This document shows, one piece after another, positions 36,117-63,800 of a stretch of 64,000 nucleotides of DNA (position 1 is the first letter of the stretch; each line of letters starts with the position of its first letter). The stretch lies in NCBI GenBank assembly GCA_000934665.2, contig KZ538373.1:1-64000 (forward strand). The letters are read 5' to 3'. This DNA comes from Catajapyx aquilonaris (Eukaryota). Both the position numbers and the translations under genes were made by a program. The notes under the pieces were generated by a model. The model saw only the letters and a program-made list of their open reading frames with translations. It was not told the DNA's origin and did no database searches.

Positions 36117-37494
36117 TCACACTAGAGTGGATAGCTCGTGTGCATGTGACACCGAGCTCAGGTCCAGGTTGGCTACTGGGAGTGTTTGGGGCGGTTCGTC
36201 CATTTCCACAGGGGACAAAACCGTGGGCGAGACTGGAGGTGACGGCAATCCTGGACTGGCCATCCGGTTCCTCTCCTGTCAACACAGCAAAGAGATGGTG
36301 TAAGTTCCCTTGCTTTGCATTTGTCGGTTGGCAACTTTGGCTCAATACTATTGATGGCTATTGGCTATTGGCACTAAACATTGCCAGTTCATTTATTACT
36401 CTAAAACATTTATTAAATGAGCAGCCGAATGAATGGTCCAAAAAAGTTTACGGCCCGTATCCTCCTGCAAGATTGCAATGGGCATTGTATCAGTAGTCCA
36501 TACCTTCTGCCAGACAAAGACGTTGTGCACCAGTGCACATCCACAGAAGATGACTCCACAGCCTATGAACACGCTCGTGATGATGGCAGGTGTGGAGTGA
36601 AACTGGATCAGGGTGTACAGGATCACCCCTGAAAATGGATTGGATTATGCCATTATATCTCCCAGACCAAATACCACCAAAGACCATGTCCTGGTTCTGA
36701 CCTGTGAGGAAGACAGGTATAGATATGAAGAATCCTCCTACAGCACACACCCTGGTGACAGAGGCCTTCCGCAAGAACTTCCCTGTCCTGTCCCCCCCAG
36801 TCCCTCCTCCGCTCCGGGCCAGCTTGACCGCGAACAGAAACTGGATGGCACAGACCAGCAGGCAGCACAGGTTGAGCGAGAGGGTAAGGGCACAGAGGCC
36901 CAAGGTGACCTCATACACCACCACGTACTCCTCTGCAGTGATCACCCTCACTTGTTCACTCTGCAGTATCTCCCTGATATTGTCCAGCAATCCGGGAGAT
37001 ATCTTGAGGAGGAACACCAGGGCCAGGAGGGCCAGCAGGAGTGACAGAAGGCACAGGAGGCCAAGCGACGACAGCATCTGGCCCACACCAGCCTTCTTGG
37101 GGAGCAGCAGCAGGCGAGATACCGCGTTGCAGTTGCCATTGCCATTACCATTGTTGTGGTTGGGTCTTCTGGTGAGATGCAACCCTCCATTGGCCATCCT
37201 CGGTGGGTCCCCATTGGCTCTGGCTAGGGTCTGCTGCGTAAGGAAGGGTCCGTCGTGCACCGAAGGCTGCGAGTGGTCCAGACCCGTGGTCTTGGTTGCA
37301 TTGGTGGCACTGGGGCTGAGGCTACTGGAAGTACCAGCCAGGGAGTGCTTGGACGTATCAAGCGAACCCAGGGGCAGCGGTATGACAGGCAGCAAGGGTG
37401 GCGGGCTCTGGTTGAGCCGCAACGGGGGCGGCCCATGGTCGGCCGGGCAGCGTGGGGGCATCCCGCCCCCTGAGGCCAGCATGTGCTTCAGCAT
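36117..37494 (-). CDS. TMEM221: TMEM221/Jiraiya-family multi-pass membrane protein, 3 coding exons
   Basis: Hydrophobic helices, LNLCCLLVCAIQFLFAVK, VCAVGGFFISIPVFLTG|VILYTLIQF...HNVFVWQK. Final exon ends HELSTLV* (PDZ-type C-terminus). Confidence 0.8.
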
Positions 37495-38176
37495 GGCCTC
37501 TGGGACGACCACCTCCAGTCCATGGGCGCCACCAGGTCACTGCCTCCCGCTGCTTCTTCCATTACAATGCCAGTGATGCCTCTGCAAATCAAGATCAAAG
37601 AGTGAGAGCTAGTCAGGTTTGCGACACTTGGCTTTTATCATCCTTAATTCAAATCAGACAGGACTGGTCATGCAAGCCAAACGACCTGACTCACACCCCA
37701 ACGTACCTGCCTGGAATATGAATGAGCCTTACATGTACACCGTATGTAGACCATGCTACCAATGCTGATCCCCTAATTGTGCCCACTATATGGGGAGCAA
37801 AACGGTGCACCTGACCCAGAGTCCTCCACACAGCACACACATACCCAGGTTACCTAACGGGACATTTTCGCACTGCAGAGTGTCCCGCCGAAATTCGTCG
37901 CGCCGGAGCAACAACCTTCCATCCACCTCCTGCCTCCTCTCTTCTGTCCCCCTGTCCCCCAGTCCCCTCCATTCGCTGTATTTTTCTGCACTCTTGGCCA
38001 AAACAGACCCCGAGTTTTTTCCTCCCCTCTCCCCTCCCCACCCACCGATGACATAAGACGCCAAAACTGGAAAACTACCGGCTCCTTCAGGCACTCAAGA
38101 TTACTCCCTGATCGAACCCCCCTCTGCCATTCCCATAAGATCGATCCGGCACAGTGCTACACAGTGCCCCCCTCAC

Positions 38177-41226: not shown

Positions 41227-42467
41227 CTATTTGGTTCTCTTTAACACAGCATCAGTTATCATGACTAAGCCCTTCTGAAACGGGGTGTCCGTCAGGAGGC
41301 TGGCGTACTTGACTGCCTGCTCGCAGTGCTCTTGGGCCAGGAAACGCGTCTGCCTTATGCTGTCCGACTTGAACACGCATTCCAGGGTGGTCTCAATGTC
41401 GCCTGGCAGCTGGAATCGCCTCTCTATCAGTTCAGAGAGGTGCGGGTGTTCCAGGGAGGCAAACAGCACTGGAGCTGTTGCCAGGCCCAGCTTCAGGTCA
41501 ACTCCTGCAGGTTTCCCCATTGTTTTGGCTGATGAGGTAAAATCCAGGATGTCATCCACTAACTGGAAGGCAATGCCTATGTGCCGACCATACTGAAAGG
41601 CAGCTTCCTGCAAAGACTCGTCTGCCCCTCCCAAGATAGCTACGGACTTGCACCCACACGCTATGAGGCTAGCCGTTTTCTTATAAGTCTTGGTGAGGTA
41701 GCGGGTCAGGCGCTCCTTGATCAATGATGGAAAAGAACTGGGTGGAAGAAATAGGGTGGGATGTTGAGTAAATATGTACATGTTGCATGCGATATGCAAA
41801 CCTACAGAACACGGCAGCCTTACCTTCCATCCTTCGCCACAAAACCTCCCATTTGCATGAACTCCCCTTGCACTAAATCTACGTACGTCCTGGCCCATAC
41901 TCGCACTACATGGGGGTTATTAAGCCTCGAAACCATTGCAGACACTACAAACAGGACGTAATCACCAGCCAGCACTGCTTTTCTGGTACCACACAATCTG
42001 TTAGTACTGTGCCTCCCTCTACGCACATCCGAATTGTCGACTACATCATCATGCATCAGTGACGCCGTGTGCACCATCTCAATTGCAACAGCCATCTTCA
42101 ACTGCGATGCCAGCACAAAGTTGCGGTGGTGTAGGTGTGTGTTAATAGCCCTGGCCATCAATGCAGTTATGACTGGACGTATTGCCTTGCCGTGGCCATC
42201 AAAGCCATACATGGACAGGGCTTCAAGGCTCTTTGATGCAGTGCGGAGCTCCTGGCGAATGTCATTGTGCAGGGTGGCAAGGTCGTCTTCCACCAACTTG
42301 TAGGGGTCGGACCTCTCTGCTGGAGCAGGGTGGTGCAGCTGGAGCGATGCCGCAGATGTCAAAAACTGCCTCATGGTGTACCGTCGTTGGTAGAGGCACG
42401 TCACTCGGATGCATAGTCGATGCCTGTTGTTCACCAGGAAGAGGATGCCAATCCTCCAAAGGGACAT
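41227..42467 (-). CDS. PDSS1: All-trans-polyprenyl (decaprenyl) diphosphate synthase subunit 1-like; start codon uncertain
   Basis: GKAIRP, FARM EMVHTASLMHDDVVD...RRG, AVLAGDY, KTYKKTASL, SARM FQLVDDILDF and DLKLGLATAPVL. One intron at ~41721-41821. Confidence 0.9.
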
Positions 42468-43112
42468 TCTTCAATGTCAGAAGGTCTTCAGCCAGGAAAA
42501 CCTTCTGCATGACTGGAAAACGCAAAGATGTAAATGTTAACTCCTTGACACGTGCATAGGAAAAGAGGTGCAATAATTTGACTGAATATGATAGGTAGTG
42601 TTTGCAATTGCCATATCCTATCTTTGAACTGGACTAGTGCAAGTTTCCTTTCTTATCAAGGATCGTAAGACTTAATTGCACTCATAACCACAGCTTATCA
42701 CTGGATGCCTACTGTGCTGATATGAAAACGGCAGCACTGGGCATAAAAACTTGTTATTGACCAAATCATTAAGCCTCCAAATTATGATGACGCCACATGT
42801 CACTTACAAGCTACGAGTACAATAACATACGGCATCTACGTAAATCTCTGATTTCTCAATTCCTGTCCTTGAAACTCACGACATGAGTTCGCTTATTTTA
42901 AAACACTACTTTATTACCCATGCAGCCTAGCTCATGTTTGCACCATCGAAATCTAATCAACCTGTCTCTGCCCCACTATTAATAACATTAGTGTCATCAG
43001 GTCATCACACATTTCCTGTTGATAACTCCATTTGTTCTGGGCCAGACAGTGCAAGATGATGCAACAGCCAGGAAAGTGCTGGTCATGTCTCTGCCGTGAT
43101 ATGCAACCTTTT

Positions 43113-43882: not shown

Positions 43883-46800
43883 ATGATGGCATACTCGGTG
43901 AGTATTGTGCAGCTGGGGTCAGAGGTCATACATGTGCTAATGGTGTGTTCAGAACGTGCAGGTGCAGTTGGAGTTGGGCCACCGAGCGTCCCTGAAGAGC
44001 AAGAAGACGGTGGAGGGCTTCACACATGATTGGGAGGTGTACGTGAGGGGTCCTGATGCCAGCAACGTGCAGTATTTTGTGGAGAAGGTGGTGTTTCACC
44101 TGCACGCCAGCTTCCCCAAACCGGTCAGGGTTGTGAAGGAGCCGCCGTACTCCATCAAAGAGTCGGGGTACGCAGGGTTCATCATGATCATCGAGGTGTA
44201 CTTCCGCAACAAGGAGGAGCCCAGGAAGGTGCGGTACGAGTACGACCTGTTCCTGCAGTCGGAGGGGCCTCCTCACGGGAACACCAGGCTGGAGAAGCTC
44301 ACCTTCCAGAACCCTGCCGAGGACTTCAGGCGGAAGCTCATCAAGGGCGGAGGGGTAGATATTTTCACTGATCTTTGGACACACTTCGGTAATAATTAGC
44401 CAACAACAAAACGTGACGCTCCCGCGCAGTTAATGTTTGGAACTTCATCTTCTGGCCAAATATGTAGCAGTTTTCTCTTCCAAATTAGGGCAGTAAATGC
44501 TCGTAAAGTGGGTAATTGCCGACAATGAAGCTGAAATGTGCGTACATAAATTGTGGGCATTCTCTGTGCATTATCTGCTTAAACTTGGAAGATTAAACAG
44601 CCGTGTGGAGCCAGACATGGGGAGTGACACACATTGGTCGACAGTGCCGCATCTGTTGGATTCACATGCATCTTATCACCTGAGATGAGTTGTTTCACCA
44701 GCGTCTTAATTGCCAGACTTGATTGCAAACAGGAAGATGAGGCGTAGCAATTTTAGGTTCAATTTTCTCGGATAAGTGTGTCAAGGTGATGTTAATTGTG
44801 CAAGAACATTGTTACATGACAAACGCATGTGATACTCAGATGTGTTTTGACAGCTGAAAAAGCCGATGTTATAATCCGACTGTGTCTGGAATGTAATAGT
44901 GTTCAATGTGCGACAGTCTTTATCACTGGCTTAGACTATATTTCTGTCTCTGCAAATGTTCATAGGGCACTGAAGTGACACACTTTGCAAGAGATGGCCA
45001 TGACATTCATTGTCCAGGTGCAATGACATTACGGCTAAGCAATAGACGAGTTCTTAGAATGGCTTACTCCGGACTCTGTTGTCCTCCACTTCGGCCTGTC
45101 TTGACTTATGAATTTGCCTTTGCCAGATTGGGGTCCTGGGCTCAGATGGTGGGACCTTGATCAGCACCAACGAGAGACCAAGTCACCCTGGTGGCAGCTC
45201 AAGTTCAAGCTCAAAGTCGGCCGCTATGCAACCCAAATCAAGTGGAAGCTCCTCCTCTTCCTCTTCCTCGACTAAGAGTAAAGTTGATCTGGAACCCAAG
45301 ATTAAACACAAGGTTAAGGTACGCATTCCTTCTGCCCTACAATACCTTTGCATTGTTGCAACAATACATCAGCATTGTGCAGATTTCATGATATTGTTTG
45401 CAGCCACTTGAACCAGATCTTCCATCTCCTTTGTATTACTGGTACCAGCCCGTATCCTGCTCCTACCCCATCCTGGTCCTTTAGCAGGTATTATCCACAA
45501 CTTTTCCATACTTATTCACTATCAGGGGCAAATAAACGCTTCATAAATTCCAGACCATTGCTACCACTTTTCATTGTTTTCAGGTCAAAGCCTGGTTCCA
45601 TCACTGGAAGTAGACTAAACATTAAGGATTTACCCATTTAATTGTCTATTTTAAAAATTCAAGTGAATGAAGAATGCCTAGACTCATTCCATGATTATTG
45701 CAGGAAAGCAAGATGGAGCTGGCCAGGCCTGCCAACTCCTTTGCTGCCCTGTTTGGCCCGCCCATAAAACGGAGCAAGACGGAGCCAACACCAAAGAAGG
45801 AGTCGAAACCAGTCAAGGCAGAGCAGCACAGGCCCTCCAAAGAGCCGCCAAAAGAAATCCAAGCGCCAAGGCTTCCTATTGCCGCAAAGCATCCACCCAT
45901 CCCACCCAAGCCCGAAGCCTCGTCTGTAGACAAAAAGAGCAGTAAGAAGGAAGTGTCACCTGCAAAGAAGAAGCGCAAGCCTAAGGAGCGGGAGGAAAAA
46001 GGTTTGGTGACGAGTGGGAAGAAGATGCCGGAAAAGGTGCCTGAAAAGGTTGTGGAGAAGATGCCTGAAAAAGTTGTCGAGAAGGTGGTGGAGAAGGCGG
46101 AAAAAGCAGAAAAGTCTAAGTCAAAGGAGAAGATGGATAAGGTGAAAGAGCATAAGAAGACGACGCCAGAGAAGCCGAGGAAGGAAAAAGAGAAGGAAAG
46201 AAAGGTAGGCATCTACTTCCACACTTAGTAAATTACTGTAGTTTCATGAAATAAGGAATTCTGACCTTACGAATGTGACTGATTCCAACCCTTTATCCCC
46301 AGCAAACAAAAGTAACACCGCCGCCACTGCCACCTCCAGTGCTGAAGTCGGAAACAAGAAAGCCTCCAAAAGCACCTACAAAGAAGGTGCCGCCTGAGCC
46401 AACCCCTAAGGAAGAACCGCCACCGCCACCGCCGCCACCCCAACCCGCAAAAGAGCCGGAGCCAGCCAAAGAGAAGCCAAAGCACAAGCACAAGAAGCGA
46501 AGCCACGACCCACCTGAGAAGAAGAGGCCTGAGAAGCGTCCGGAGAAACCAAGGCCTCCAGCAAGCCGCATCAAGAAGGAAGTCCTCCTGGAGAAGTCTC
46601 CTCCGACCTCCTCCAGTGTCACCCCATCTCCACCCACCCCACCACCTCCTGTGCAGCCAACTCCTCCTCCCCCACCTGTGGCCTCTACTCCTCTACCAGC
46701 GGCTACGCCCAATGACGCAGGCCACCGTCACAGCAGGAAGAAGACTGGGCTGGACATACTACTGGCGGAGATGCCCGACTTCTCCGACTCAGAGACATCC

Positions 46801-47510
46801 GATTCCATCCCGAGTGATTCCGAGTCTGGTCCAGATAAGGCTCTGATTCTTAGCACTCCAGAGCCCACCCCTCCTCCTCCTCCCCCTCCCCCACCTCCAC
46901 CGCCAACTCAGCAACCTGAGAAGAAGTCATTAAAGCGCAAGGCAAAGAAGGAGTCTGGGCCCAAGCGGAAGTCAGCTAAATCTAAGGAGTCCAGCCTTGG
47001 GTAAGTAGAATTTCATTACTTTGGACTTTAATCAATGGCCAGTGAGCTTATCTCTGGGGGGATAATAAAACCATAACGTGAACCTGCCATCTTTCCAACC
47101 AAAGGTCATCAAAAATGGTTGTGGCTGACTTGGTTGAATCTCCACCTCTGCTGGCATGCCCTGAGCCGACACCTCGACAAGAAATGCAGTCGGCCCGAGG
47201 CGAGATGGCACCAGCACGTCCGGAAGCGACCCCGAAGCAGGAAGGGCAGCCTACCCCTCGCCCCAAGGAGGAGAGCACCAGTGATCATGTCCCGGAAGAC
47301 CCCAAATTCTCCAATGAATATCTGCAAATACTGGTGGAGCTGCAGCGTATCATCATGAACCTGGAGGACCAGGATGTCCTGCAGAAGGTTGTGGACGTCA
47401 TCCACAGCTCGGGACACCTGCAGACAACCTCCACGTCACTCGACTTTGATCTCTGTCATCTCGACAAGACCACTGTGTTCAAGCTGAAGGAATGCATCTC
47501 TGCAATGTGA
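43883..47510 (+). CDS. ENL/AF9 family YEATS-domain transcription elongation factor (MLLT1/MLLT3 orthologue)
   Basis: Exon 1 MMAYS; exon 2 YEATS domain ([11 protein letters not shown]...[11 protein letters not shown]...ESGYAGF); Lys/Pro/Ser-rich linker; C-terminal AHD ([10 protein letters not shown]...[12 protein letters not shown]). Confidence 0.95.
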
Positions 47511-48380: not shown

Positions 48381-49140
48381 TCTTAAAATCATTTAATTCG
48401 TACAACACACCAACTCTGTACAAGTTTTCTATCAGGACTAGTGGAAGTGTAAAAGACAACATGCCTTCACCGCTTGTAACTATTAACCCGACACCTGATT
48501 CCGGGTGCATGAAAACACCTATTTGGTTCTCTTTAACACAGCATCAGTTATCATGACTAAGCCCTTCTGAAACGGGGTGTCCGTCAGGAGGCTGGCGTAC
48601 TTGACTGCCTGCTCGCAGTGCTCTTGGGCCAGGAAACGCGTCTGCCTTATGCTGTCCGACTTGAACACGCATTCCAGGGCGGTCTCAATGTCGCCTGGCA
48701 GCTGGAATCACCATTGCGGACACTACAAACAGGACGTAATCACCAGCCAGCACTGCTTTCCTGGTACCGCACAATCTGTTAGTACTGTGCCTCCCTCGCC
48801 GCACATCCGAATTGTCGACTACAACATCATGCATCAGTGACGCCATGTGCACCATCTCAACTGCAATTCCAGCACAAAGTTGCGGTGGTGTAGGTGAGCG
48901 TTAATAGCCCTGGCCATCAATGCAGTTATGACTGGATGTATTGCCTTGCTGTGGCCATCAAAGCCATACATGGACAGGGCTTCAAGGCTCTTTGGTGCAG
49001 TGCGGAGCTCCTGGCGAATGTCATTATTGTGCCGGGTGGCATGGCCGTCTTTTACCAACTTGTAAGGGTCAGACCTCTCTGCTGCATCAGGGTGGTGCAG
49101 CTGGAGCGACGCCGCAGATGTCAGAAACTGCCTCATGGTG
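48381..49140 (-). pseudogene. Internally deleted, frameshifted duplicate of the PDSS1-like gene
   Basis: High nucleotide identity to 41078-41418 and ~41930-42378. About 510 bp is missing, including the intron and the SARM-encoding region, and there are additional small indels. Confidence 0.9.
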
Positions 49141-49599: not shown

Positions 49600-50951
49600 C
49601 TAGTCTTTAATCCCTGGCCAAAAATCCTGAAGCACTTTGGGCACTACAAAGGCATGGTTCAAACTGGGCCTCTCGGCTGGTTGCGCCTCCATCAGCGCTG
49701 CTAACAAGCACCAGATGTCGGCAACCTCCATGCTCACAAGACCTGGAAAATTCATGTCCATTCCAGGCCCATAGATCCTTAACCTGCGTGACACGTATTC
49801 CCCTCCCTGCGACAGACTGGCTGCCTTGACATAGCAGCCTTGGGCAGCCATCCAGAGCTGCAACTCAGTCCGGCTCATCTCCCAACAACGCAGGCTGTGA
49901 GCTGGGACTAATGTGATGCGGAAGTGTAGGCCCAGTTCGGAGTACCACTGGGTCAGGTGGGTTAGGAGTGTGGCCGCCTCTGACTCCAGATCGGAGGTCA
50001 TTGCTATGGCATGTGCAGAAGTGCGTTGGGGCGAAGAAGTGAGGCCTCCAGCAGAGGGATTCAGTGTATAGGTGCGTCCAATGCTGGAGAGTCGAACAGG
50101 GAGCAAGTCCAGGCGGGTACGAACCACGTAAGTGATGACAGACGGCAGCGATGCTGACCCTGCATTTTAAAATATTTAATGACTCATAAGCATAAAGCTA
50201 CTTGTGCACACAACTCACCAACAAGATGGGTGCGAGATGGCAACTCCTCACTCGCATCCTGCTCCACTTGAAACACTTTCTTTGGGTTGTCCCATTCCAT
50301 CCCGCACCCTTCCACTATGTTGCTCTTGCAAAAGTCCGATCCTACGACCCCAGCAAACCCAGCCTGTGAAAGCTTGTCTCTGAAGTAGCGACAAGCTGCC
50401 TGCTCCAGCATGGCTGCCTGGCCCAAAAGGTAGTAAGCCCCATGGTAGCAGGCAGGAGCTGGCTTCAAAACACCACATTTTTTCCCAAAGTCCAGGTGGT
50501 GCACCGCCCTTTCGATGTTCAGGACTGGATTAGAAGTGTAGACGACAACCTCGTTATCACGAGGTGTTTCAGGATGCAAGTAATTGGGAAGTTGTAACAC
50601 CCGAGGCACCAGCCCTTCCTCCATGTCCCCCCACTCTTTCATCAGCCTCTTTTGTTCCTCCCGCAACTGGCGACCCTCCTGCCGCATCTCCGGCAGGACT
50701 TCCCCTTCCCGCATCTTTGCCGCCAGCTCAACCCTGCGTTCCTCCAGGATTTTCATCCTCGACCTGACCTGCACGGCTCCCTCCCACTCATCCCACATGC
50801 TCCATAAGTCAGCCTTGATTCTTCGCCCTTTCAGTGAATTCTCCATGCGATCTAGATCGCAAAGAGGTGCAGCAAAATCCAGATACGGCTCTAGGGCCAC
50901 AAAGGCCCGGCGGGCAATCCTACCACTCACATACAAAGCAGACTGAGCCAT
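49600..50951 (-). CDS. Slimp: SLIMP: seryl-tRNA synthetase-like mitochondrial protein (non-catalytic SerRS2 paralogue), 2 exons
   Basis: SALYVSG...LEPYLDF N-terminal signature, coiled coil, LPNYLHPETP, DFCKSNIVEGCG, HLVGSAS and SIGRTY. The canonical motif-2 FRxE is absent. Confidence 0.85.
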
Positions 50952-50975
50952 TGTCTTTTACTGCAACCACCTCAT

Positions 50976-51514
50976 TTATTCGTTTGCCTTAACGTTGACA
51001 TCCATCTTTTGCTTCATGCTGTTGGGCACAAGCGTCTCCACCTTCTGTCGCCTGGCTGCAGGCTGGAAGCTGCCCATCCCGGCTGCCATCTCAGCCTCCT
51101 TCTGTGTGTACGGCTCCACCTCCAGCTGCTTCATACGCTGCTTGTGCACCTTTGAGCGGAAGTGGCCCTCAAGAGACTTGCCATCCACAAAGTACCGCCT
51201 GCAAATAGGAACCATGCAATAAGTATTTCTCAGGGTCCAATAAATGAAGACGCGCACTTACGCGCAGTGGACGCAGTAGAACTGTCCGCAGCCTGGCTTG
51301 TCGATGTCCTCCTCCTGGTTCAGAAGCTTCTCCACCGTACCCTCCTGCAGGTCCCCAACAATCTGAAATGCCCATGCCGACAAGCTTATCATCTCCAGTT
51401 GCCATGACCATGCGGCTGTTGTACCTGGTCGATGTCCCTGGTCCTCCTCCTGGTCCGGTACACTCTCTTGTTGTGAGTATCTCCAGAGTGCTGCCTCTTG
51501 CGCTTATACGTCAT
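50976..51514 (-). CDS. ZNF593: Zinc finger protein 593 / Bud20 (60S export factor), 3 exons
   Basis: [62 protein letters not shown]. Confidence 0.95.
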
Positions 51515-51727
51515 TCTCAGGGGCGGCCCCGGGGCGAAAACGGGTCAGCCTAGGCCGGGCAAGGCCTCACCAAATATCCAACAGACACGTGCTGATGAGG
51601 AAATGGCGCATGCGTGTTTGAACGCTTGAAGTACAGGCATGACAAAACATGCAACGGAAGGTCACATGACCCTTGTGCTAATTTGCGTACAAGGTGAGTG
51701 GACCAATAGGAGGAGGGCTGGTTTGAC

Positions 51728-51735
51728 TATAAAAG
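51728..51735 (+). promoter_or_regulatory. TATA box of the Tyr-rich protein gene (CCAAT ~25 nt upstream)
   Basis: TATAAAAG about 90 nt upstream of ATG 51817; CCAAT at ~51703. Confidence 0.6.
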
Positions 51736-51816
51736 CGGGTCGTCTCCCGGTCTCCATCTCTTTCGCTCATCCCTACTATACTTTCACATACCATAACATA
51801 GCTCATCCCTATAGCC

Positions 51817-52507
51817 ATGTATAAGGTAATGTATAAGGTAAGGTAGTGTGGGTTTGTTTTTATTATTTTGTGTTTCTTATTCGCAGATGCTGGTCGCTGT
51901 CTTCCTGGCCCTTGTGGCAGCCTCTTCTGCTGAGTACTACGAGATGACTCCGGCGCCCACTTCCTACGGGTACGAGCAAAAATACGAGAAGCCATCGTAT
52001 GGATATGAGCAGCCCAAGTACGAGGAGAAGTCCTACGGCTACGAGCAGCCTAAGTATGAGCAGAAGTATGAGCAGCCCAAGTACGAGGAGAAGTCTTACG
52101 GCTATGAGCAGCCCAAGTACGAGCAGAAGTACGAGGAGAAGTCTTACGGCTATGAGCAGCCCAAGTACGAGCAGAAGTACGAGGAGAAGTCTTACGGCTA
52201 CGAGCAGCCCAAGTACGAGCAGAAGTACGAGGAGAAGTCTTACGGCTATGAGCAGCCCAAATACGAGATGAAGCAGTCCTACGGTTATGAGCAGCCCAAA
52301 TACGAGATGAAGCAGTCCTACGGTTATGAGCAGCCCAAATATGAGCAGAAGCAGTCCTACGGATACGAGCAGCCCAAATACGAGGAAAAATCCTACGGAT
52401 ACGAGCAGCCCAAATACGAGGAAAAATCCTACGGATACGAGCAGAAGCAGTCGTATGGATATGAGCAGCCCAAATACGAAAAGAAGTACGAGAGCTATGG
52501 TTACTAG
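51817..52507 (+). CDS. Secreted Tyr/Glu/Lys-rich tandem-repeat structural protein
   Basis: Micro-exon ATG TAT AAG, an intron, then signal peptide MLVAVFLALVAASSA followed by repeated SYGYEQPKYE(E/Q/M)K units. AATAAA just after the stop. Confidence 0.88.
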
Positions 52508-55075: not shown

Positions 55076-58000
55076 TTATTGCTGGCATGATAGTCCCTGC
55101 ATTGCCGAGCTGGGAAGGTCCAGAAAGGCCCTGGCCTGCTGCATGGTCTCCACGTCCACTGTGCCCAGCAGTTCCTGGAAGTGGGCCGGTCCCATCTGGT
55201 CCTGAAGCCTCCTCACCTGCTCCTGGAAGCAGCTCTGGAGTGCCACTGTGTGCACAGGGTCCATCAGAACCAGCTGGCGACTTCGGCGATCGCAGGCACT
55301 CTCACCCTCCTCGGAATAGTCACCAGAGCTGATTGAAGTCAGCGAGGTCAGAAGAAGGCTGTCAATGCAAACGAGGTTAGATGAATGAATGCAATGAGCT
55401 ATAACGCCACAGTTGTCAGCTAAAAAAAGGGGCAACATACTCCTCTTCTCCACCAGTCCCATCAGTCTTTGCCACGTCATTGAGCACTTGTACTACAGCA
55501 AGCAAAACGCCACAGAATTTTTCCATTGCAGCCGGACACCTGGAGTCCATCAGAGCCAGCAGGCCCAGGGCCAGCAGCTTCCTCTGCTCTGTCTGCCACA
55601 CCTGCCCCATCCTGTCGATCCACACCTCCATCACCCTGTCAAGAGCCTGCTCGGCCCCGACACCCTCCCTGCACCCTGCCTCACCCACCGCCAAGTAAAA
55701 TGTCTCTGCAGAGCAGAGGGTCAGACGGGCCAGGACAGTCAGGTGCCGAGTCATGGTCTGGATTGGGATAGCAGGTGAAGCGGCATCAGCACCAAAAACG
55801 CACCGCAGAATGTAGGGCAAGATAGGGGCCCAGGTTTGAGGAGCAGTGGTGGGGGAAGCTCGGAGGGAGGTCTCCACCAGGTCAAGGATCACGTTCACTC
55901 CCTCAGGGCGAAGCTCCGAGATGAGGCCGCAGCAGGTTGCCACAAGAAGAGACCCATAGTGCTGCAATGTTGATAACGACTCAGTCAAGGTGAAATACCA
56001 ATCCAAAGATGCTTCCAACTCACCCCCAGTACCTCATCCGGCGCAAGCATCACGTATGCCCTTGCTATCTGCAGACAGGTCTTCAGGTTTTCCGAGGACA
56101 GTTCCAGCAAGGGTGGGAGGTTGGCAAATAGCTGCATAACGGGTGGGGTAAGTCCCTCCGTATTGTGCACTAGGGAGAGCCAGAGGTCCAGTCCGTCCTC
56201 CAGAAGGTACAAGTGGCTGCTTTGGCTCAGGTCGGTGCTCAGTTGGATCACAGAAATAAGGAAAGTGGAAGACAGGTGCGGATCCAGGGCAAACGGGCTG
56301 CCTGTAGGGCTACTGGTTGTGGCGGTTGTGGTCGAGCTCAGTGCTTCAATCAGTTGCCTGCAAATTACGCTATTAGTAGGAGCACTGGTGCGCTTCCTGG
56401 GATTGTGTCACTACCTGAGCGTGGTTAGAATGGCACATCGCAGCATGTTTAGCTGTGCTGACTCCTGCCACAGAGACTGAAGGTACTCGGTCAGGGAAGA
56501 TGCAAAAGGCCGCACAAATGCACCTACTCGTTCAATTATGAATGACATCACGTGGAGCACCTGCATCTGTTACATCGAAATGAGAGAGGGTGTTTAGGTA
56601 AAACGCTCACCCATGATGCTTGAAACTGAATAAAAACTTATACCGACCTTGCTGTCACACTCCTTAGCCTCTCTCAGCAGATTGTAAAGGAGACCAAAAA
56701 GTCCCTGGAAATAAGGCAGAAACTGCTCTCGATTGAACTCAAAGTCGTCCACAACCTGCTTCAGGGTGTTGGCTGCAGTCAGCCGGACCAGCATATCCTC
56801 GGAGGGGTGGAGGGCAGGAACCAGGCATTCGTACAAGGATGGCCTTAACTCAGGGGACATGTTCACTCCTGCCCATTCTCCCAGAAGCCACACGATGCGT
56901 GCTCGGAGGATGCGGTAGTTAGGCTCACCAATCTTCAGTTCCGTCATCAGACTGCTGGTGAACCACTTGTCAAAGTCAACCTGGAAAATGATGAAATGAG
57001 ACTTACGCATCCAACTGACTGGGAGCAACATTCATTTTGTGTTACAAAGAATATTCTGACATGTAAAAATCAAACCTACCTCATTATACAAATCAAATGC
57101 AGTAAGTCCTATGACATTGTAAATGGCATCCTTCCTGAGGATTTCGCTGAGGTCATCTGGAGGGACGGGAGCACTCTTGGACCTCATCAGTTCCAGCACT
57201 ACAGGAATCAGGACCTTCTGGAATATCTTGAATAGCTCGAGGAACAAGTCTTCTGTACACGGCTGGTGGAAACAAAAAAGAAAAGTGTTTGGAAAAGTTT
57301 TTACTCCCAAAATCATACTAAACTCACCCTAATATCACATTTAGATGATTCTCCTCCTTCAACAGTTGCTGTGGACAGACAATTTAATTGTGTTATTCCG
57401 CAGCGATGTCAATAGGTTAGAGTACATTTTGACGATACTCACCCAGCAGTTCTGGGTCACTATCCCACATCTCAAGGTCAGCCTTTGAGAATGGGAAGTA
57501 CTCAAACACAAGCTTCGTGGCAATGTCGATCACTCTCTCCGTTGTGAAAAACTGCGAAATTAGGTTCTGTGCCTCAAGTACTAATGGGTCCTTCACCTCT
57601 GTCAAAATTGCAACACAATTAAAAACGACAGTTCAATAGACACCTAATGACCAATTAACTTACCCCCAATGTACTTCCCAGGCTTGAACCTGTACTCGAC
57701 ACAGTCCAAAATCCCTTTCATCAGATTCATGCACTGGACGGTGAACCTCTCAAAGGTGAAGGCCTTTCCCTCTGGGGTGAAAATGTAATGGTACACAAAG
57801 TCAAGGGAGGGTCGGATGAAGCGGACATAGGAGAAGGGATGCTGCTCCAGGACCTCCAGGAGGACCTTCATCATTGAAGTGACACACTTCTCGCACAGGT
57901 CCTGAATGTGTTGGGAATACGGAGCAGCTTTCTTTCCTAGGGAGTTAGAAAGCAGAGCATTGAAGCTGTCACAGCCCGAATATCTTCAGGACTTACTGTA

Positions 58001-60847: not shown

Positions 60848-63800
60848 ATGGCAGGCAAAGGGCTGCCGAAGATGGTCACGGTGTATCTGGCTGAAGGAGG
60901 GCCTGGACCAAGCGGGATGCTGCCCAAATGCAGGGTCAAATGTAAGGGCTAAAGTTGGATATGGTCGGTGTGGGTGTAATAATTGGGGTGTTTTTCAGCG
61001 TTTGCTAACTTACCGAAGCACTTGCAGTCGGGTCGGAGGGATGAGGATGACATCGCAATGGTGGATGACGTGGAGAATGATCCGGAGTACGAGCCAGAGG
61101 GTGAGCTGAAAGAAGTGTCGTCCGCAGGTTTGCAGCCGATTTGTGTGTTTTTAAGATTCAAAGTATTATAGCAGATACATTTTTTTCAGATGATTCGGAC
61201 ATCCCTGAAAATGACAGGCCTCGACAGAAAAGGCAGGACAACTCACCGGTGAAGAAGTCCGCAAGAATTGAGGCGAGACGAAGCTCCAGAGCTCCAAAGA
61301 GGAAAAAGCCCTTAACTGATGACGAAGATGACGATGACGATAAGGTTGTAAGTGACAGTTTGATAATTAAGTAGTCGCTTACAAGTCAGTAGCAATGTCA
61401 AAAGTTGAAACTATAGAGCTGATGTTCTCAAGCAAAATGTTCATCCAGATATGCCTGAATTATTTGTTGTTTAATCTTTAAAACATATTTCGTCTTTTTC
61501 AAAAAAAGAGAGATCAAAGTCGACATTTGCGTAAACGTCGTACGTGTAGGACGACAGGCATGTCTGGGTTAGTAAACATTTTAGGACAATTGTTTTAAAG
61601 ATTTGTACTATGTCCTCACTGAAGGCTGTGTCAAGTCCCTCAAGAAGGAAGTGGAGTATGGCGTGGGCACATTACCATGAAGTAAATAAGAATATTGCGA
61701 GGTGCAAGTACTGTCAGAAAATGATTTCATTCCGAACCACCCTCACAAACTTAAAGGCTCACATGATATCCCAGCATAAGGATGAATGGACGGCTGCGGA
61801 GCACGAATTGATAGAGGTTAGGCATACTTCTTTTAGGGAACCTCAGTGGGAGCATGTACATTGTGGATAACTTACATTTGTACTCCCATTTTTTCTTGTC
61901 AGTCTCAGCGGATGAGTGTGGAGCCGGCGACTAGAAGGAAACGGAGCATTTTATGGACCTATTTTCAACAAGTTGGTAATGGGACAGCCATCTGCAACTT
62001 GTGTGAAAAACGAGTCTCACACAAGACCACATCCTCGAACCTGAAGCGACACTTGCAGGTGAACCACCCAACCATCACTCTTGAGTCTGGAGGGAGATCC
62101 ACGTGTGCATCAGAAGCTTCAGGGCATGAGATCAGACGAGAACGAAGCCCCGAGTATGATGAAGAGGAGCCAGATGCAGGTCAATGATTTTCATGTCATA
62201 TAATATTTTACACATGGATATTTGTTATGTAGATGTCACGCTGTTGATTTGGTGAATTGAAGCATCATGTGATTTACTTGTCCAATAGAATCAATTGTGG
62301 AAGCGGAGTTTGATCCAGAGAATTCCCAGCAGCCAACCATCACGGCTTTCCAAGGGGACAGTGAAAATGGAAGCGATGAAATGCCAGATGAGGAGGTGAG
62401 AGGTCTTGTGGAAACATCACGATTTTAAATGCGCGGCATGTGCACATTAATTCCTTGCAGCAGTGAAGTGATTCCTGGTGTGTGCTTCTCTTCACAGATA
62501 ATCCCAGACGTGAAGACACCAGCAAGTACAAAGAAGAAACGGAGCTCCCTGTGGGATCACTTTACATCCAAGGGAAACCGCATGGCCACTTGCAAACGCT
62601 GCTCGAAGCTAATCTCTTACAAGACCACAACCTCCAACATGAAGCACCATTTGAAGACGAAGCACCCCGAAGTTGACCTAGACTTATCACTTGTCTCAGC
62701 AGATAGCCAGCCTGCTGCTTCGTCTGCAGGAAACAGTGCTACAAAAAGAGTCATCATCGCCACATCTTCAGTAATAAACCAGGTCAACAGGAAAAACATT
62801 GACCGCAGCCTGATGGAAATGTTCATAAAAAACAATCAACCTTTCTCACTGCTGAAGTCGGAGAATTTCATCAAGTTCACAATCTCGTTGAACCCAAACT
62901 ACATTCCGCCATCCATGAAGCACATGACTAGAACAGTACTTCCTGCCCTGTACAAAGAGTATGTCATACAGGTCAGGTCAAAGATGCTACAAGCCACAAG
63001 AGCTTGTGTGACGGCGGATTGCTGTGACGTCGGTACTGAACGTCTGATCAGCGTCATGGCACATTACAATGACGAGAGCTTGGAAACGCACCATGTGCTG
63101 CTCGAGTGTTCGGCATTGGGTGACTTTGAAGCATGTTTTGTTGTGGCTCGAATCATGCAAGAGTGGGGATTAGACAGCAACACGGAGAGAAAGGCTTCCT
63201 TGCTGGTTACCGGTGCAGGCTTGGCTGGAGCCGAGATCAGCAACACAAGTCGGTTTGAGTGCCTGTCGTACCTGCTGGATGCAATTGTTGTGCATTCACT
63301 TGAACAGCATGCCAAGATACTGCTTGAGCAAATTAGAGCCATGGCAGACTATTTTGGGAAGAATCCGCTAGAAGAGCAGAAATCAAAGGTATGTTGGTTG
63401 TCTGAACAAGTCAAGAGTAACGAGTAATAATTCGGCACCTTGGTTGTTCCACAGGATGCGGATGTGAAACTGCTCACCCGAGATGTGGACACCCAGTGGC
63501 CCACGACCCTGCAGATGTTGCAACAGTTTGTGGAACTTGAGAACAGCATCAGAGCTGTGATTATATCAGTGTCTGAGACAGATTTTCAAGCAGCTCGTGA
63601 ATTAATTGAGATCCTGATACCGTGGGAGGAAGTGTCTGAAAAGCTGAAGAGCGATTACGTGTTGGGGGCAATGGTGGTCGTATACACAGAGGGTCTCCTG
63701 GACCACTGCAACGAGTTGAGCTGCAGACCCCGTGAAATTCTGTCAGCCACCGTCCTGGCCACGCTGACAGCGGAACTGAAGGCCTTGCTGAAAAATGTGG

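Follow-up and report, generated by a model that had tools for sequence, protein, structure and literature searches.

In Catajapyx aquilonaris, the genes for the ribosome-assembly factor ZNF593 and for SLIMP, a paralogue of mitochondrial seryl-tRNA synthetase (SerRS), follow one another at a distance of only 24 nt on the minus strand of contig KZ538373.1 (assembly GCA_000934665.2), of which positions 1 to 64,000 were analyzed (the window). We consider it somewhat probable, judging from sequence, that the two genes constitute an old arthropod dicistronic unit of the Drosophila type. Both coding sequences are complete and lie on one strand, and the same arrangement was found, with 19 nt from stop to start, in a metagenome contig from another organism (L001). 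This recurrence of a very short spacing between two conserved genes is what exceeds chance expectation, and the gap is also exceptional in its neighborhood, where the adjacent genes are 372 and 464 nt away.

The ZNF593-SLIMP junction

The initial annotation had read the junction as one frame on the minus strand, in which the ZNF593 end AAC GAA TAA is followed by ATG AGG TGG TTG CAG TAA, by the codons AAG ACA, and by the SLIMP start ATG GCT CAG TCT; our reading gave the same codons in the same frame. The same-frame spacing of 24 nt, the AATAAA on the ZNF593 stop, the TTGCAG located 9 nt ahead of the SLIMP ATG, and the lack of space for a SLIMP promoter or 5′ untranslated region (UTR) within the spacer were all confirmed. 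The junction comprises the following elements.

50952..50975, minus strand: intercistronic spacer of 24 nt, from the ZNF593 stop (50978-50976) to the SLIMP ATG (50951); its L001 counterpart has 19 nt
50958..50975, minus strand: mini open reading frame (mini-ORF) of 5 codons, ATG AGG TGG TTG CAG TAA, in frame with both genes; no L001 counterpart
50975..50980, minus strand: AATAAA across the ZNF593 stop, a candidate poly(A) signal for a ZNF593-only mRNA
50961..50966, minus strand: TTGCAG, an acceptor-like hexamer; not conserved in L001

Taken individually, the small features of the junction are unremarkable against chance. A shared frame is expected in 1 of 3 cases, TAAATG has 39 copies on the two strands of the window (a rough composition estimate gives ~42), and TTGCAG is present in 56 copies on both strands. 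A DNA alignment of the window and L001 junctions is not meaningful at such divergence; conserved between the two are the short spacing, an AATAAA that overlaps or closely follows the ZNF593 stop, and a SLIMP start of the ATGGC form in which position −3 is a purine. The AATAAA in the L001 spacer is weak evidence, because L001 is AT-rich and carries five copies of this hexamer on the SLIMP-coding strand.

Conservation of the spacer had been proposed as a check on the initial annotation, and the comparison divided its features: the short spacing recurs (24 vs 19 nt), but neither TTGCAG nor the mini-ORF has a counterpart in L001, where the spacer is free of AG and ATG. Both features are lineage-specific and probably non-functional. 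The mini-ORF AUG also stands in a poor context (T at −3), whereas the SLIMP AUG has a good one both in the window (ACAATGG) and in L001 (GAAATGG).

Identity of the two genes

The upstream gene is identified from its sequence matches as ZNF593. Its model comprises three exons on the minus strand (51514-51425, 51362-51262, and 51198-50976), separated by GT..AG introns of 62 and 63 nt, and gives an open frame of 137 aa. Among PDB entries, exon 3 matched human ZNF593 (6lss_9, E 3.9e-17) and yeast Bud20 (3jct_I, E 4.1e-5), and it passed the Pfam cut-off for zf-C2H2_jaz (PF12171; 24.3 bits vs 22.6). The protein carries a single C2H2 finger of the JAZ type whose best matches are ZNF593/Bud20, and its length and Arg/Lys-rich exon 1 agree with a small protein of about 130 aa that has a basic region N-terminal to the finger.

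The downstream gene is identified, likewise by its relatives, as SLIMP, a mitochondrial-SerRS paralogue that groups with the proteins named Slimp at NCBI. Its two exons on the minus strand (50951-50219 and 50159-49600) are separated by an intron of 59 nt and encode 430 aa, and the splice junction is backed by collinearity with P0001, a relative described below. The best PDB matches of exon 1 were mitochondrial SerRS (7tzb_A, E 4.8e-16); SLIMP residues 39-231 align to residues 42-254 of 7tzb_A, arm included, the window stretch being ~20 residues shorter. Exon 2 reached 23.2 bits against Pfam tRNA-synt_2b, below the cut-off of 29.3. It has a Cys opposite the motif 3 Arg of human SerRS2, and its motif 2 region is unaligned.

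A profile search with SLIMP returned 2105 relatives at E <= 0.001. Among 20 relatives whose names were looked up, several are called "serine--tRNA synthetase-like protein Slimp" and come from insects, and the profile matches include named Slimp proteins of Schistocerca, Bemisia, Anabrus, Lycorma, Thrips, and Phymastichus. By the definition of de Potter et al. 2023 (PMC10570016), SLIMP is a paralogue of mitochondrial SerRS in which the N-terminal arm is retained and the catalytic pocket lost. The window protein resembles the SLIMP/SerRS2alpha system of invertebrate mitochondria in its degenerate core and, apparently, in its N-terminal arm, the loss of the pocket being indicated by the core score and the motif 2 and 3 changes and not by residue-by-residue mapping. 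It differs in lacking the usual presequence of 13-40 residues before the SALY-type motif. The exons of the two genes are as follows.

51425..51514, minus strand: ZNF593/Bud20 exon 1, with the ATG at 51514-51512; basic N-terminal 30 aa, completing the open 137-aa frame
51262..51362, minus strand: ZNF593 exon 2, first half of the C2H2 finger; 82% identity with residues 9-41 of the relative P0002
50976..51198, minus strand: ZNF593 exon 3, stop TAA (50978-50976) included; matches 6lss_9, Pfam zf-C2H2_jaz, and P0002 (79% identical)
50219..50951, minus strand: SLIMP exon 1, with the ATG at 50951-50949; N-helix and presumed coiled-coil arm, matching 7tzb_A and 55% identical to P0001
49600..50159, minus strand: SLIMP exon 2, with the stop TAG at 49602-49600; degenerate class II catalytic core, sub-threshold in Pfam and collinear with P0001

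Recurrence of the gene pair

Among longer proteins, SLIMP exon 1 retrieved one relative, P0001 (440 aa, 55% identity). ZNF593 exon 3 retrieved one, P0002 (114 aa, 79% identity), when shorter proteins were searched, while the longer proteins gave 7 candidates for this exon, none of them significant. Both relatives come from Logan assemblies, each with 1 member on 1 contig, and this contig measures 2089 nt in both cases. P0001 is uninterrupted over the site of the window's SLIMP intron, as is P0002 over that of ZNF593 intron 2. P0002 opens with 8 residues unlike exon 1 and then resumes exactly at exon 2; reading through intron 1 of the window likewise gives a 44-aa ORF (51258-51392). The lengths of the other Logan contigs with SLIMP (1524-4284 nt) are compatible with a ZNF593 partner but do not demand one.

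When metagenomes were scanned with P0002, 4 loci emerged, and one of them, L001, was informative. This contig of 1927 nt is free of introns, including all three introns of the window, and has short flanks (81 nt 5′ and 36 nt 3′), like a cDNA-derived contig. Its parts are listed below.

5′ leader: 81 nt ahead of the ZNF593 ORF
82-489: ZNF593 ORF, complete, 135 aa; matches 6lss_9 (E 9e-29) over human residues 4-131 of 134
Between 489 and 509: spacer of 19 nt, AAACAATAAATTTAACGAA; AATAAA 5 nt after the ZNF593 stop
509-1891: SLIMP-like ORF, complete, 460 aa; 30% identical to P0001 (E 3e-45)
3′ tail: 36 nt after the SLIMP-like ORF

The SLIMP-like ORF of L001 matched mitochondrial SerRS with an E of 8e-20, and its motif 2 and motif 3 residues are replaced. 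Its start at 509 is backed by another relative, P0003, which also begins with MA and likewise places 31 residues ahead of the SSL(I/F)ISG motif. An ATG at 476, located 11 nt before the ZNF593 stop and in the SLIMP frame, would add 11 residues and create an overlap of 14 nt with ZNF593; the start at 509 fits P0003 better. The ATGGC start is common to the window, P0001, L001, and P0003, whose proteins begin with MAQ, MAR, MAK, and MAV, respectively.

In a SLIMP tree of 23 rows, out of 163 proteins, L001 fell within a hemipteran clade with Lycorma and Clastoptera (support 99/98), far from the window protein. The latter paired only with P0001 (100/100), and its deeper placement among arthropods was weak (36/75, long branches). 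Because L001 sits in the hemipteran clade, away from the window protein, the tight ZNF593-SLIMP arrangement is common to very distant arthropod lineages.

The remaining metagenome matches contributed little. With SLIMP exon 1 as the query, 32 pattern stretches were matched, and no relatives emerged. L002 was a weak, unrelated, and uninformative match, its ORF being presumably a bacterial Lon protease, and L003 and L004 matched over 27 residues only, with no SerRS-like sequence within their 3-kb flanks.

Expression of the gene pair and alternative explanations

We infer that both ORFs are carried by a spliced mRNA transcribed from a single promoter ahead of ZNF593 (about 51515-51886). For some transcripts, the AATAAA across the ZNF593 stop is probably the end point, leaving ZNF593 as their only product. 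On the two-gene mRNA, ribosomes that have terminated at the end of ZNF593 would resume initiation at the well-placed SLIMP AUG, ~20 nt further on. Such reinitiation after ZNF593 termination is probably how SLIMP is translated. The number of ATGs ahead of the SLIMP start, 9 in the window mRNA and 10 in L001, makes leaky scanning very unlikely. A structured internal ribosome entry site (IRES) is not indicated at the junction either, since the junction RNA is less stably folded than 193 of 200 shuffled sequences (z +1.73) and Rfam gave no match. A spacing of ~20 nt kept over a long evolutionary distance would fit termination-coupled reinitiation. The initial annotation had proposed that the genes share a transcript: tight coupling and its recurrence in L001, and probably in P0001/P0002, speak for this part of the claim, while the splicing and read-through mechanisms offered with it are not supported, as discussed below. 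Its further suggestion of a functional coupling between 60S biogenesis and mitochondrial translation is unsupported and speculative.

Several points weigh against a dicistronic unit. P0001 and P0002 most likely lie on the same 2089-nt contig, a placement that follows from the equal contig size alone. Since P0002 does not start with exon 1, its contig would retain intron 1, be genomic, or begin within ZNF593, and the last of these would fit an internal promoter. This contig and L001 are assemblies, derived from RNA or DNA, and are suggestive of a spanning mRNA; short-read contigs can merge overlapping mRNAs, so that they are no proof of one spanning molecule. To judge from the AATAAA at the end of ZNF593, many transcripts may stop short of SLIMP. 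An ORF of 137 codons normally allows only inefficient reinitiation behind it. Finally, motif 1 of the termination upstream ribosome-binding site (TURBS) is UGGGA, a sequence complementary to 18S rRNA that lies upstream of the stop-start site, and no UGGGA was found within 120 nt upstream of the ZNF593 stop in the window or in L001.

Part of this evidence would also agree with two overlapping but separate units, in which SLIMP transcription starts inside ZNF593 (in an intron or in exon 3), ZNF593 mRNAs end at the AATAAA, no mature RNA encodes both proteins, and the tight packing reflects genome compaction kept over time. We regard this explanation as less probable, yet as a serious competitor. 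The overlap of the AATAAA with the ZNF593 stop speaks for it, as do the start of P0002, which looks as if its contig began in or retained intron 1, and the habit of assemblers of joining overlapping transcripts. An Inr (initiator)-like TCATTT is present in intron 2 at 51247, a weak match, and in the FlyBase set (PMC4528330), a downstream promoter is the usual source of monocistronic transcripts of the 3′ gene. Yet a SLIMP mRNA starting in ZNF593 would still contain several upstream ATGs in the ZNF593 frame, so that reinitiation would be needed anyway, and a promoter inside coding sequence would have to persist both in a hemipteran-like insect and in the window lineage. No TATA, DNA replication-related element (DRE), or Ohler motif matched between 51900 and 50900, core-promoter scans being uninformative here, and L001 begins 81 nt ahead of the ZNF593 ATG and runs across both ORFs.

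Splicing into TTGCAG, one of the mechanisms of the initial annotation, would make the pair an operon whose precursor is cut at the AATAAA and joined at TTGCAG to a spliced leader (SL) or a cis exon. The order AATAAA, 9 nt, TTGCAG, 9 nt, ATG does resemble the short intercistronic regions of tunicate and nematode operons. Spliced leaders are also mentioned with copepods and amphipods in the accessible portion of the literature. But the L001 spacer lacks any AG, TTGCAG is common in the window, and a cis-splice at this site would make TAA the first codon in the SLIMP frame, the other two phases reaching a stop within 13 codons; we therefore hold this resolution to be highly improbable. Joining the donor of ZNF593 exon 1 to the AAAAG ahead of ACA ATG would supply SLIMP with an in-frame basic leader, but this splice was judged unlikely as well, because the site has no pyrimidine tract, the three introns of the unit end in CAG, and L001 has no counterpart.

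A further mechanism of the initial annotation, read-through of CAG-TAA-AAG at the end of the MRWLQ mini-ORF, found nothing in its favor beyond the shared frame, and the mini-ORF is missing in L001. It belongs to a wider explanation, scarcely credible to us, in which the TAA at 50960-50958 results from misassembly, is polymorphic, or is read through, and SLIMP starts at ATG 50975, abutting the ZNF593 stop, with a basic leader of 8 residues. This leader would add 1 Arg and 1 Lys to the shortest N-terminus among 115 homologues, the mini-ORF is in the SLIMP frame, and L001 too has an in-frame ATG (476) near the ZNF593 stop. Against it stand the poor context of ATG 50975, the efficiency of TAA followed by A as a terminator, and the ATGGC start shared by the window, P0001, L001, and P0003. 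With these alternatives considered, we continue to favor the dicistronic unit with reinitiation at the SLIMP AUG.

The N-terminus of SLIMP

As the initial annotation had noted, MAQ alone precedes the SALY motif of the window protein, that is, 3 residues before SALYVSG, compared with 31 residues before the corresponding motif in L001. Among the best 150 SLIMP homologues, 115 extend to the N-terminal limit of the profile, and the window protein is shorter at this end than all 115 of them: they carry a median of 23 more residues and at least 4, and only 8 of the 115 have 12 or fewer extra residues. By this comparison, the window SLIMP has no mitochondrial presequence. P0001 begins later still, aligning from window residue 12 onward.

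Over its first 20 residues, the window SLIMP has 3 Arg, no acidic residues, and a strongly amphipathic stretch; hence these residues may themselves serve as an import signal. An internal or uncleaved import signal is possible, too. The mini-ORF may be the relic of a short former SLIMP leader or presequence that was cut off by a stop codon.

A bolder version of the dicistronic reading combines these observations: an obligate two-gene messenger of early arthropods, with SLIMP made only by ribosomes that finish ZNF593, without a TURBS, its presequence cut off, and import relying on an internal signal. We think this unlikely. If true, it would represent a natural cellular case of termination-reinitiation that is efficient after a long ORF, and the outputs of two translation systems would be tied together.

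Relation to known systems

Dicistronic mRNAs are established in Drosophila, where the mechanism by which the second ORF is translated is mostly unknown. Those of the Snapin-HemK2 type are reportedly translated by continued scanning, a finding attributed to Wall et al. 2005. The ZNF593-SLIMP pair shares with them the conserved arthropod two-gene arrangement and the short spacer. It differs in that their mechanism needs an AUG-free first cistron; with 9 (window) and 10 (L001) ATGs preceding the SLIMP start, continued scanning would be inapplicable here.

SL trans-spliced operons of nematodes and tunicates are similar in their packed same-strand genes and in having a poly(A) signal and then an acceptor-like site before the ATG. 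In the present pair, the acceptor is not kept among relatives (TTGCAG in the window, no AG in the L001 spacer), and the apparently mature contigs of the relatives carry both ORFs.

FlyBase lists 159 dicistronic pairs in D. melanogaster, according to the available text of Crosby et al. 2015 (PMC4528330). Within what that text describes, the likeness lies in unrelated same-strand genes, a very short stop-to-start distance, and a small first cistron, and a ZNF593-only form made through an upstream poly(A) site would be plausible here. The difference is that the window unit is known from genomic sequence and that we infer its spanning mature mRNA. No hit to Slimp, CG31133, CG3224, or SerRS was obtained in 12 supplementary files of PMC4528330, a search that did not extend to file 1, which may be the polycistronic list.

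The termination-reinitiation of caliciviruses and influenza B, as presented in the accessible parts of PMC2793014 and PMC3035654, resembles the proposed mechanism in that a second start lies close to the stop of a long first ORF. Compared with those systems, the present pair is cellular, has no UGGGA-type motif within 120 nt, and has a stop and start that are 19-24 nt apart and do not overlap.

Our literature search for Slimp or ZNF593 in dicistronic transcripts found no paper connecting the two genes, and the SLIMP papers searched contained no mention of a two-gene transcript. In the available part of PMC10570016, gene linkage is not treated, "dicistronic" does not occur, and "bicistronic" is used solely for an expression vector.

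For reinitiation behind a long ORF, the pair would be a well-suited natural test system, because a spacer of 19-24 nt is kept between distant arthropods behind an AUG-rich first cistron and leaky scanning is unlikely. It also carries a warning for annotation, as SLIMP may have no promoter of its own, and it flags a SLIMP without a normal mitochondrial presequence. We rate its interest as moderate, mainly for the deep conservation of so short a spacer downstream of a first cistron rich in AUGs, and for a SLIMP that lacks a presequence.

Genomic surroundings

Upstream of the pair, a divergent gene occupies 51887-52507 on the plus strand, 372 nt away, and downstream, a minus-strand ORF starts at 49136, 464 nt past the SLIMP stop. 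Two further features belong to the flanks of the unit.

51515..51886: gap of 372 nt to the divergent gene, presumed shared or bidirectional promoter region of the unit
49606..49611, minus strand: ATTAAA just before the SLIMP stop, ending 3 nt before the stop codon; candidate poly(A) signal of the unit

The 51515..51886 gap gave no TATA match. On the minus strand, the copy at the ZNF593 stop is the only AATAAA between 51864 and 47808, and the 464 nt that separate the SLIMP stop from the following ATG (49600-49136, minus strand) contain neither AATAAA nor ATTAAA. Either the SLIMP 3′ UTR is very short or transcription continues towards the next gene. Over the whole window, AATAAA is present in 89 copies on both strands, compared with 46.8 expected, and no shuffle reached 89.

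The divergent gene at 51887-52507 (plus strand) has a signal-peptide-like, secreted-looking start followed by ~20 repeats of the YGYEQPKYE type, and gave no Pfam match. On the 3′ side of SLIMP, 48688-49136 (minus strand) encodes a piece resembling a long-chain prenyl diphosphate synthase, of which 48688-48855 matched solanesyl diphosphate synthase (9k9b_A, E 2.3e-10), with a first Asp-rich motif that looks altered. A separate gene at 41230-42470 (minus strand) gave good matches to Pfam polyprenyl_synt. The two may be the two subunits of a decaprenyl diphosphate synthase, or a gene and its decayed copy. By Pfam, the window further contains a Jiraiya-domain protein (36493-37536, minus strand), a YEATS plus AHD protein that is ENL/AF9-like (43941-47507, plus strand), importin-11-like TPR exons (55079-56407, minus strand), and three consecutive zf-BED ORFs (61550-63424, plus strand).

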